DNA from: a virus
Lineage: Duplodnaviria; Heunggongvirae; Uroviricota; Caudoviricetes
Reading direction: 5' to 3' (one strand)
Length of the DNA stretch: 64,000 bases
IMG/VR virus record: IMGVR_UViG_3300025122_000007
Span: 37,620 to 101,619 of that record
The notes beneath the pieces were generated by a model. It saw only the letters and a list, made by a program, of their open reading frames with translations, was not told where the DNA came from and did no database searches. This document shows, in pieces, positions 1 to 1,305 of this stretch. The position numbers were made by a program, and so were the translations under genes. Each line of letters starts with the position of its first letter. Positions within the stretch are counted from its first letter, which is position 1.

Positions 1-829
1 TAGGTTACGTAGAGTGGCCATGTAAGGCATGTTAGGCTGAACAGCTTCCCATACCTCTGCCGAGTTACCGAATTGAGAGATGACATTCTCCCAGGTAGCA
101 CCAGATGACTTGATCAACTCTAAAGATCTTTTGTCGAGACTGTTTCTCTTTGAAAGCTCCTTGCGAGCAGCGATCAAAGGTACTCCCTCTGGGTTGGAGA
201 CTGTCCCCTCTACCAAGAACTCTCTGACTGCTTCGGATACTGGGTAGTCCTTTCTACGCTCGACCATCTTCAATATATCACCAAGTCCGGACTGGTACTT
301 GACCAGACCATACTCATTGAACTTTGTGAAGGCCTGTGCCAACCCACGCTTGAGTGCGTTGGGGAACGGACGTCCATAGAGATTCTGATAAGCAAGGAAA
401 ACCTGGCTTAGTTCATCAGCTCTTTGGATGATCGAAGAACAGTACTGGCGTACCAGCCCCGTACCCTTATATACATTGGAGTGTGCTGCGACTGCCAGAA
501 GAGCACAAGGAGTGGACCTCATGTTTCCTTCAGTCCTTGCCCAATGTGCAATTGCCAACAGGTCACGAGGGTTCTCACCGTCTGCAATCTGCTCTGCCAA
601 AGAAAGAACCTTGACAGCTTGGTCAGTCATTCCTTGTGTGTTTGCAACGACCTTCTTACCAGGCTTTGCCACTGTATAGTAGGTACAATCTCTTTCATTG
701 AAGAAAGAAGAGCCTACCATTGTTAGGAGCTCTGTTGTTGGGTCTGCAACCACAAAGGCTTGTCCGCCTGCACGATTGATTGTCTTTGGGACTTGAGATA
801 CACGAGTCTGCTTTGTAAACTTTGCCATT
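1..829 (-). CDS. rsr: Ro60/TROVE-domain protein, N-terminal ~276 aa; the gene runs off the left window edge
   Basis: Hand translation of the minus strand from the ATG at 828 gives MAKFTKQTRVSQVPKTINRAGGQAFVVADPTTELLTMVGSSFFNERDCTYY...PYMATLRNL with no stop before position 1. The N.AGGQAF..D...L and G.S....TYY pattern and the terminal ATLRNL match the Ro60 TROVE N-terminus (human FLCFGSEGGTYY ... TALLRNLG). Confidence 0.7.
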
Positions 830-904
830 GTTATTTTCCTTTACTGTCGCAGCACAGTTTGCATGCTGAAGTTGCTGCGAAGAATTATTTCTCTCACCAG
901 ACTG

Positions 905-1225
905 TCACCAGTCTTCTTCCATCCCTTCCAGATAATCTGCATCGGGTAGGCTACCAAAGTAACCTTCCGGGAAGAATTTCTTTAGAGTTTCGATTTCTTC
1001 ATCGAAAATCTCGACTCGTTCCTTTTTTAGACAAGCTAAAAGTTGCTTTGGGGATTCAAAACAAATGTATTCATTGGTTCCGAAATACCACTCGAAAAAA
1101 GAAAATGTTTTGCAATTCTCTACAACTTCTTCGAGTCGGTTCCACTCTGCTTGTGTATAGATTTGAAATCCATACACATCGAACTCGTCAGCGTAGTTTT
1201 TACAAAACTTTACTAAGTAATTCAT
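905..1225 (-). CDS. hypothetical small acidic protein
   Basis: ORF track 905..1237; likely start at MNYLVKF. Confidence 0.4.
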   Translation of the reverse strand: MNYLVKFCKNYADEFDVYGFQIYTQAEWNRLEEVVENCKTFSFFEWYFGTNEYICFESPKQLLACLKKERVEIFDEEIETLKKFFPEGYFGSLPDADYLEGMEEDW

Positions 1226-1228
1226 AGT

Positions 1229-1305
1229 GGTAGTCAAAGGATTTGAACCTTAAACAAGGAGCGTATGAGACTCCTACCCCTCCCAGAGGGTCCGGCTACC
1301 AGCCG
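1229..1305 (-). ncRNA. tRNA-like structured RNA, candidate Y-RNA (YrlA-like) next to Ro60
   Basis: On the minus strand there is a T-arm (AAGGTTCAAATCCTT), a 3' CTACCA that pairs with a 5' TGGTAG, and a CCA-like end. The anticodon-like hairpin has a 9-nt loop and no acceptor stem completes a canonical tRNA. It lies immediately downstream of the TROVE gene. Confidence 0.4.

Follow-up and report, generated by a model that had tools for sequence, protein, structure and literature searches.

A phage Ro60 gene beside an ordinary tRNA(CAU) gene and five Y-like RNAs in tRNA spacers as its likely partners

A stretch of 64,000 nucleotides (nt) from a caudoviricete virus (IMG/VR record IMGVR_UViG_3300025122_000007, positions 37,620 to 101,619; 'the window') carries the beginning of a Ro60 gene at its left edge and, between 1.2 and 27 kb, more than 30 genes for transfer RNAs (tRNAs), every one of them on the minus strand. 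The conservation of Ro60–Y RNA particles extends from bacteria to humans, and human Ro60 is an autoantigen in lupus and Sjogren's syndrome. To our knowledge, the function of the tRNA-like half of bacterial Y RNAs is still unknown. In the reading proposed here, to which a probability of about three in four is assigned, the RNA gene neighbouring Ro60 is an ordinary tRNA(CAU), and five Y-like RNAs located in spacers of the tRNA array are the likely Ro60 partners. The original prediction of a Ro60/Y RNA system in the window was right about the presence of the system, but wrong about the coordinates and the element proposed as the Y RNA. Phage Ro60 proteins with YrlA-like RNAs are already known. 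The distinctive features of the window are the five copies, the two architectures, the interleaving with tRNAs and a divergent internal loop.

The Ro60 open reading frame (ORF; 1–828, minus strand) starts with an ATG at 828–826 and is still open at position 1, past the left edge. The 276 translated amino acids contain INRAGGQAF and GSSFFNERDCTYYT and end with MATLRNL. These motifs had already been read as a Ro60 TROVE signature, and the assignment was borne out: the fragment matched the Pfam TROVE hidden Markov model PF05731 with 58.4 bits (cut-off 23, the match thus lying above the gathering score; E=1e-15). A homologue search in 5.8 billion proteins yielded 87 relatives, the majority with a precomputed PF05731 match and often with an additional vWA_Ro60 domain (PF25045; present in P0002, P0006 and others). 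The nearest homologues share merely 46–49% identity and have a TROVE plus vWA_Ro60 architecture. The best PDB match was the Ro60 of the Thermus phage phiLo (9KOP/9L5Y), which aligned to residues 28–276 with E=1.1e-9 and is about 25% identical. The fragment is the N-terminal half of a phage Ro60 (TROVE) RNA-binding protein. The remaining C-terminal 200–250 amino acids or so, including the presumed vWA domain that would complete the Ro60 ring, are located beyond the left edge of the window.

The five Y-like units are encoded on the same strand as Ro60. Two are short and YrlB-like: U1 (5539–5608, minus strand) and U2 (5371–5453, minus strand). Three are YrlA-like: A (16963–17095, minus strand), B (17546–17683, minus strand) and C (17759–17863, minus strand), the last being the most degenerate. 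The distance to the Ro60 start codon is 4.5–4.8 kb for U2 and U1 and 16.1–17.0 kb for A to C. The units are paralogous and share a sequence box, AGUACAGA-NNN-RAG-WUACUU, which occurs exactly five times in the window, once in each unit. A 3' motif, UCGCUUUUUCUCGY, also has exactly five copies in the window, each partnered with a box. A covariance model (R1), built solely from sequences of the window and of a bacterial locus described below (L005), detected no sixth unit in the window. U1 and C, both training sequences, scored 71.8 and 83.6 bits with this model.

All units are spacer elements. U1 is flanked by a degenerate tRNA-like element on each side, and its 3' end lies a few nucleotides before one of them. 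U2 follows a degenerate tRNA-like element, and its 3' end is 8 nt ahead of a tRNA-Met(CAU) at 5290–5362. Unit A is placed between tRNA-Tyr and tRNA-Asp without overlap with either, and unit B between the tRNA at 17686–17754 and tRNA-Ile. The 5' start of A and B is 1–2 nt past a called tRNA, and C is preceded by a degenerate tRNA-like element. The 3' ends of U2, A, B and C are 4–8 nt ahead of the next tRNA. Besides the T-arms of the called tRNAs, a scan of the minus strand found 11 further perfect ones.

The units share a stem-loop-stem structure at their ends. In helix 1, the nucleotides before the box pair with those after the 3' motif, joining the 5' and 3' ends of the unit. Helix 2 is formed by the variable box positions and the stretch preceding the 3' motif. 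Between both helices lies an invariant asymmetric internal loop with N-AGUACAG on the 5' strand opposite YGCUUUUUCU on the 3' strand (AGUACAG/GCUUUUUCU), and WUACUUC follows helix 2 in all five units. U1 has the helices AAGCG/CGCUU and ACGAAAG/CUUUCGU around the loop AAGUACAG/UGCUUUUUCU, followed by AUACUUC. U2 combines AGGCG/CGUCU and AGAG/CUCU with the same internal loop and has an apical hairpin. The corresponding helices are AUAGAG/CUCUAU and AUUAGAG/CUUUGAU in B, and AUACG/CGUAU and AAGAG/CUCUU in C. In unit A, the closing stem-loop-stem is followed by UUACUUC, a V hairpin and a permuted tRNA-like domain.

The pairing was evaluated in an alignment of seven sequences, the five window units and the two elements directly upstream of the L005 TROVE gene. 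Of all cells in paired columns, 93.1% were paired, compared to 67.9% in shuffled alignments, and none of 500 shuffles reached the observed value. When the partner was moved by one to three columns, pairing was 42–51%. Eleven of the 13 pairs change on both sides. The comparative structure is within 0–3 kcal/mol of the minimum free energy (MFE) structure for the units and identical to it for U1. The predicted folds agree with the general definition of a Y RNA, that is, end-paired helices around a conserved internal loop. The strict motif GNCGAAN0-1G with its CGAA is present in U1 (GACGAAAG; CGAA occurs twice in this unit) and U2 (GGCGAAG) only, in both where helix 1 meets the loop. The YUAY motif is present as UUAC in A, B and C. 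The stem-bulge-stem with CG(A/U/C)AG at the helix 1/loop junction appears to be the counterpart of the module through which bacterial and phage Y RNAs bind Ro60.

The apical part of A, B and C consists of an optional V hairpin, a T-arm with 5 base pairs (bp) and a UUCRAYU loop, a closed hairpin that follows without spacer, two linker nucleotides and a D-arm with GG. The closed hairpin has 6 bp in A, 8 bp with a GAAA cap in B, and 7 bp in C, and the linkers are UA, UG and CU, respectively. In unit A, the domain at 16995–17050 comprises the T-arm GUGGG-UUCGAAU-CCCAC, the closed stem CCCCAC/GUGGGG, UA and the D-arm GCUU-AGUGGCCUA-AAGC; the domains of B and C are located at 17579–17632 and 17785–17837 (minus strand). 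A descriptor of the T-arm/closed-stem/D-arm arrangement, from which nucleotides 15 and 48 were left out, had convincing matches in the window solely at A, B and C. Two further matches at 22492–22569 and 59922–60038, with long stem loops and 3-bp D-stems, were judged to be chance. Outside the window, descriptor matches were present immediately upstream of Ro60 in the Streptomyces phages BRock (two), GiJojo (two to three) and Quantum, in the Caulobacter phage CcrPW (two) and in the metagenomic contig L004. The phage contig L002 has a module in its tRNA array, about 9.3 kb upstream of its Ro60 gene. Among the controls, unrelated phage DNA (317 kb) had no match, and shuffles of the test set had 1.5 matches each.

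Nucleotides 15 and 48 form the Levitt pair of tRNAs. Across 12 modules, the pair is G:C in seven and A:U in four. In the window, A has G15:C48, B has A15:U48 and C has U:U. The full set of nucleotides for tertiary contacts in tRNAs is retained in A and B. The permuted tRNA-like domain that characterises YrlA is recognisable in the predicted folds of A to C. The suggestion that other degenerate tRNA-like modules of the window could be Y-like RNAs is partly borne out by the modules in A, B and C, which have a YrlA architecture; the element originally proposed is not among them. The Rfam YrlA model RF02553 aligned in a permissive scan to unit A (16969–17083, minus strand) over its full length (model positions 1–114) with 30.7 bits; the E-value was 0.0066 for 35 kb of sequence and 2.6e-5 for a local scan.

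Support for a role together with Ro60 comes from other genomes. A generalised box, CG(A/U/C)(A/G)G followed after 7–16 nt by NUACUUC, was used to scan 15 Ro60 loci. In the 16.8 kb that immediately precede the Ro60 genes, it had 29 copies in the same orientation as Ro60. The other 398 kb of these loci contained 11 copies, and 634 kb of control DNA contained four. Copies were present in the Caulobacter phage CcrPW (six by this pattern; eight in tandem in a looser scan), in BRock, GiJojo and the Gordonia phage Rabbitrun (four each) and in the archaeal virus HGTV-1 (one). In BRock and GiJojo, the boxes are confined to the gap beside Ro60 and absent from the rest of the long tRNA arrays, which indicates that the motif goes with Ro60 and not with tRNA arrays per se. 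In a bacterial genome and an archaeal virus, the box adjoins Ro60 without a large tRNA array nearby; only one tRNA or tRNA-like element was called there. In other phages, most elements beside Ro60 have the form GCGUAG, and CGUAG is common in actinophage and Caulobacter phage elements.

The covariance model R1 recognised elements beside Ro60 that were not used for training in the loci L011 (E=4.7e-7), L003 (7.5e-6) and BRock (3.1e-4) and, with weaker scores, in L001 (1.6e-3), CcrPW (3.8e-3) and L004 (4.6e-3). Control loci chosen for an exact box gave at best E~0.5. In all comparison loci except L002, the elements are located within about 1.5 kb of Ro60. The Rfam YrlA model had no match at gathering level in 12 Ro60 loci and, in three loci, none at E<=2 either; the phage elements fall outside the narrow range of the curated model. 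An exact-pattern scan of IMG/VR with the box of the window gave 42 single matches, all without a downstream T-loop and only one with a loose 3' motif. They were taken as chance.

The Ro60 of the bacterial assembly GCA_964267755.1 (L005) is among the closest homologues of the window Ro60 and is the closest with full context. The region 9707–9950 of L005, upstream of a TROVE gene that is split into ORFs of 308 and 196 amino acids, has a tRNA-Arg(gcg), called by ARAGORN only, and two short Y-like RNAs. The 5' loop strand of the two Y-like RNAs, CAGUACAG, is identical to that in the window. The internal loop AGUACAG/GCUUUUUCU is otherwise lineage-specific and, in this, different from YrlA/YrlB RNAs.

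Public phage genomes contain unannotated tandem arrays of four to eight Y-like elements in the gaps just upstream of annotated Ro-like genes. The arrays are located at 6614–7704 in CcrPW (L055), 7433–7880 in BRock (L054), 7324–7872 in GiJojo (L059) and 7409–7851 in Rabbitrun (L056). They have the box CGNAG...UACUUC, and some have T/closed-stem/D modules. A tRNA-Arg(cct) is annotated in GiJojo at 7769–7843. It overlaps a Y-like box (7774–7793) and shares its T-arm with a module at 7818–7872, and Rfam made no tRNA call at gathering level at 7769–7843. In all likelihood, the 5' half of a YrlA-like RNA has been misannotated as a tRNA here.

Chen et al. described YrlA RNAs from 254 bacteria and 22 phages, with a GNCGAAN0-1G motif, YUAY, T, acceptor-stem (AS) and D arms and a compensatory Levitt 15:48 pair; every characterised species has a shorter second Y RNA, YrlB (2014; PMC4201824). 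The window units resemble YrlA/YrlB (RF02553) in their paired 5' and 3' ends, a CG(A)AG-type motif near the 5' end followed by YUAY, an optional V hairpin, a permuted tRNA-like domain with G15:C48 or A15:U48, the presence of at least one shorter partner without this domain and the location on the same strand as Ro60. They differ in number, with five copies instead of about two, and in location, in tRNA-array spacers at 4.5–17 kb from Ro60 instead of within about 2–4 kb.

The Ro60 of phage phiLo binds two phage Y-like RNAs that consist of a 5'-3' stem, a CGAA-bearing bulge and a second stem. Each nucleotide of CGAA adds to the affinity, and the host PNPase joins the complex (2025; PMC12135203). 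The window resembles phiLo in the phage-encoded Ro60 and in candidate partner RNAs with a stem-bulge-stem and a CGAA-type bulge motif. The published Yrl1 and Yrl2 are, however, directly upstream of the phiLo Ro60 and lack a tRNA-like domain, whereas phiLo has the signature of the window type, WUACUUC with covarying helices, on the downstream side of its Ro60 ORF. There, covariance model R1 located elements at 4444–4516 and 4635–4722 (L060, MH673673; E~0.01 in 6.6 kb). Both are stem-loop-stem structures with GUACUUC immediately downstream of Ro60 and overlap the hypothetical coding sequence phiLo_25. Since Yrl1 and Yrl2 were chosen upstream by the CGAA motif, the cognate Y RNAs of phiLo may be others, or more, than these two. 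A third comparison is provided by the Streptomyces phages BRock and GiJojo and the jumbo Caulobacter phage CcrPW. They have Ro60 within or next to tRNA and RNA-repair genes and unannotated elements with the same box and T/closed-stem/D module. Their four to eight elements are in tandem right upstream of Ro60, whereas the window units are dispersed and alternate with tRNAs.

The structured RNA nearest to Ro60, on the same strand, is located at 1228–1300 (minus strand). It had been proposed as a tRNA mimic or Y-like RNA partnering the adjacent Ro60, with a 9-nt anticodon loop, no acceptor stem and a terminal helix TGGTAG/CTACCA reminiscent of the Ro-binding stem of Y RNAs. Read in the minus-strand direction, the element is a complete standard cloverleaf: GGUAGCC-GG-ACCC-UCUGGGAG-GGGU-A-GGAGU-CUCAUAC-GCUCC in the 5' half and UUGUU-UAAGG-UUCAAAU-CCUUU-GACUACC-A in the 3' half. 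The acceptor stem, GGUAGCC/GACUACC, has 7 bp with one C6.A67 mismatch, an open end and the discriminator A. A D stem of 4 bp and a D loop with GG are followed by an anticodon arm with a 5-bp stem and the 7-nt loop CUCAUAC, which includes U33, CAU and A37. The variable loop has 5 nt, and the T arm has the canonical loop UUCAAAU and a U49.U65 mismatch. The supposed terminal helix is the reverse complement of this ordinary acceptor stem. The earlier description evidently arose from folding the plus strand, which gave a mirror image. The element had also been placed downstream of Ro60, whereas in transcription it lies upstream: the order on the minus strand is ORF 1913–1320, tRNA 1300–1228, ORF 1225–905, a 76-nt spacer and Ro60. 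The ORF between tRNA and Ro60 (905–1225, minus strand) codes for 106 amino acids and matches phrog_27815 (function unknown; E=1e-9); a Pfam search of it gave no match.

ARAGORN labelled the element tRNA-Met(CAU), and the anticodon is of the Met or Ile2 type. Rfam tRNA (RF00005) matched with 32.2 bits (gathering 29; model positions 1–71), and the MFE fold is the cloverleaf. Like ordinary phage tRNAs, it combines the cloverleaf, the anticodon and the T-loop with a position in the same-strand array. It differs from them in its low score, in the two stem mismatches and in a non-canonical tertiary core with G8, U14, C15, G21 and U48 in place of U8-A14-A21 and R15-Y48. These oddities, together with the absence of the element from the whole-window Rfam gathering scan and its proximity to Ro60, are the arguments for a Y RNA. 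An Rfam scan of 800–2000 at E<=10 detected only the tRNA, with no match to Y_RNA or YrlA, and covariance model R1 had no match on the element at E<=1. The arms are arranged as in any tRNA, with D, anticodon and T in this order, and not permuted as in YrlA. The CGNAG...WUACUUC box, the GNCGAAN0-1G motif and a closing stem-loop-stem are absent. The G8/U14/G21 core recurs in the tRNA-Thr(cgt) at 22545–22617 (minus strand), which favours a functional lineage variant over decay. It may reflect an alternative 8-14-21 triple in the tRNAs of this phage. With its ordinary tRNA fold, the element is not a Y RNA by the standard of the original prediction itself, and a role of this element as Y-like partner of Ro60 is scarcely credible. 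The two tRNAs also have similar pyrimidine-rich D stems, ACCC in the tRNA with CAU and UCCC in the tRNA with CGU. The hairpin in the intergenic region upstream of the Ro60 start, 829–904, was considered as a Y RNA and rejected: its folding z-score of 0.14 is that of shuffled sequences, and it has neither the box nor a match to covariance model R1.

Several observations weigh against the five units as Ro60 partners. Hardly any published YrlA is more than 4 kb from Ro60, and A to C are 16–17 kb and U2 4.5 kb away. Unit A remains below the YrlA gathering score of 69 bits, and B and C were not reported in the Rfam YrlA scan. With scores below the gathering threshold and a distance to Ro60 of more than about 4 kb, the units are called Y-like, of the YrlA/YrlB kind, and not Rfam-grade. 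An exact CGAA is missing in three of the five; the counterparts are CGCAG and GACGAG (A), AGCAG (B) and CGUAG (C). The covariation rests on seven aligned sequences, and the signal is in part that of few independent events, since the five units are paralogues of one genome. The 5' half of unit B can fold as a degenerate standard tRNA (28.7 bits with the Rfam tRNA model). A closer Y RNA may exist beyond the window edge, where the C-terminal half of Ro60 and its downstream DNA are located. Expression, processing and Ro60 binding of the units are inferred, the binding from the genomic association.

Some of these points suit another explanation, in which the five units are debris of the tRNA array or spacer repeats, that is, remnants of tandem duplications or signals for transcription or processing, and have nothing to do with Ro60. 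A tandem tRNA duplicate automatically yields a T-arm, a hairpin of complementary acceptor strands and a D-arm, and Chen et al. warned that dimeric tRNAs can mimic YrlA (PMC4201824). The tRNA-like 5' half of B, the degenerate tRNA-like elements ahead of U1 and U2 and the location in tRNA spacers remote from Ro60 would be expected of such debris. Against this, the loop is invariant on both strands while both flanking helices covary. Throughout the family, the closed stems have 7–8 bp, often with 4-nt caps (GAAA in B, GCAA in CcrPW), and are not acceptor strands plus a spacer. A tandem-duplicate artefact was judged unlikely for A, B and C. The restriction of the box to the Ro60 gap in BRock and GiJojo and its position beside Ro60 in a bacterium and an archaeal virus without a large tRNA array also argue against spacer debris, which is quite improbable as an explanation of all five units. 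The units could alternatively belong to the Y-like family and act independently of Ro60, for example as tRNA-shaped decoys for anticodon nucleases of the host or for tRNA-modifying enzymes, or as entry sites for RNase P that order the processing of the tRNA precursor. Their embedding in a tRNA operon and the tertiary-contact nucleotides kept in A and B are in line with this. So are the closed stems of 7 bp in C and 8 bp in B: the YrlA of M. smegmatis, with a 7-bp AS stem, is cleaved by RNase P, and the 7-bp stem is the determinant (PMC4201824). U1 and U2, however, have kept the loop without a tRNA-like domain, which points to the loop and not the tRNA shape as the common functional element. 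In other genomes, the family of this loop shows a tight association with Ro60 genes, and a function apart from Ro60 is very improbable.

If the five units are Ro60 partners, their maturation and function may be envisaged as follows. The distances of 1–2 nt after tRNAs (A, B) and 4–8 nt before tRNAs (U2, A to C) suggest that the units are probably released by the tRNA machinery, with RNase P and the 3' tRNA-processing enzymes acting on a polycistronic tRNA precursor. The release would leave short U-rich 3' tails. Ro60 would bind the conserved internal loop. The apical modules may tether or gate Ro60 towards factors such as the host PNPase, as in known Ro60–Y ribonucleoproteins (RNPs). The likely role would be RNA or tRNA surveillance during infection.

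A more far-reaching interpretation is possible, though doubtful. In it, the Y RNAs are encoded as alternating cassettes of tRNA, Y RNA and tRNA that are matured by the tRNA machinery, the five RNPs survey or protect the tRNA pool of the phage, the loop is distinct from CGAA, and the units belong to a larger family. Three of the five RNPs would then be tRNA-shaped, and the set might guard, for instance, against anticodon nucleases of the host or against tRNAs that are misfolded or nicked. The loop AGUACAG/GCUUUUUCU would be a recognition code for Ro60 that differs from the canonical CGAA, and a much larger, mostly unannotated family of phage Y RNAs, missed by the current Rfam model, would be defined by the CGNAG...WUACUUC box.

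The window combines Ro60, three tRNA-mimic Y-like RNAs, two short ones and a near-complete set of tRNAs in one co-oriented block. It is a compact natural system for asking whether Ro60–Y RNPs act on tRNAs. The signature of CGNAG, 7–16 nt and NUACUUC with covarying helices reveals unannotated Y-like RNAs beside Ro60 in many public phages. The phage elements found with it are below the Rfam gathering threshold, and at least one is apparently annotated as a tRNA.

The left 34 kb or so of the window is that of a large jumbo-like phage with all genes on the minus strand. A BCS1-like ATPase is about 30% identical to proteins of Caulobacter, Brevundimonas and Tunturiibacter jumbo phages, and on this basis the genome appears to be a distant relative of jumbo phages. 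Near position 34000, the G+C content changes from about 0.45 (1–34 kb) to 0.51–0.60 (34–62 kb), and long ORFs in the GC-rich right part had almost no Pfam or PHROG matches. An orphan T-arm at 34184–34200 (minus strand) is close to this boundary. The jump could stem from mosaicism of the phage genome, from a junction left by integration or from a join in the assembly.

The tRNA-rich block that houses Ro60 and the Y-like RNAs has further RNA elements. GOLLD is a large ornate non-coding RNA of unknown function. The Rfam model RF02032 matched at 26722–27169 (minus strand) with 133.9 bits (gathering 150; E=1.9e-35; model positions 1–416), and a tRNA-Arg(ACG) at 27032–27104 is embedded in the match. 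A tRNA with the anticodon CUA, an amber suppressor, is encoded at 6035–6108 (minus strand); ARAGORN labelled it 'Pyl', and Rfam tRNA scored 61.2 bits. The Ro60-encoding phage contig L002 also has a CUA tRNA (963–1037). This hints at recoding or suppression of TAG in these phages. Other tRNA-like elements are located on the minus strand at 5456–5534, ~5613–5690, 9002–9084, 12282–12363, ~17867–17950 and 18736–18752. Their T-arms are perfect, and many have a well-paired acceptor; they were not called by ARAGORN with default settings and scored 23.5–29.2 bits with Rfam, at or below the threshold. The element at 9002–9084 has two T-arms 66 nt apart, one with a 3' end like that of transfer-messenger RNA. 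These elements could be intron-containing tRNAs, pseudogenes or other mimics. A relaxed ARAGORN search with introns gave extra calls that were mostly implausible, with introns up to ~2.6 kb, and was not used. A further translation-related gene in the tRNA block is putatively encoded by the ORF 7325–7810 (minus strand), which has the motifs EGCLSFPG and HEMDHL; by eye, these are presumably typical of a peptide deformylase.

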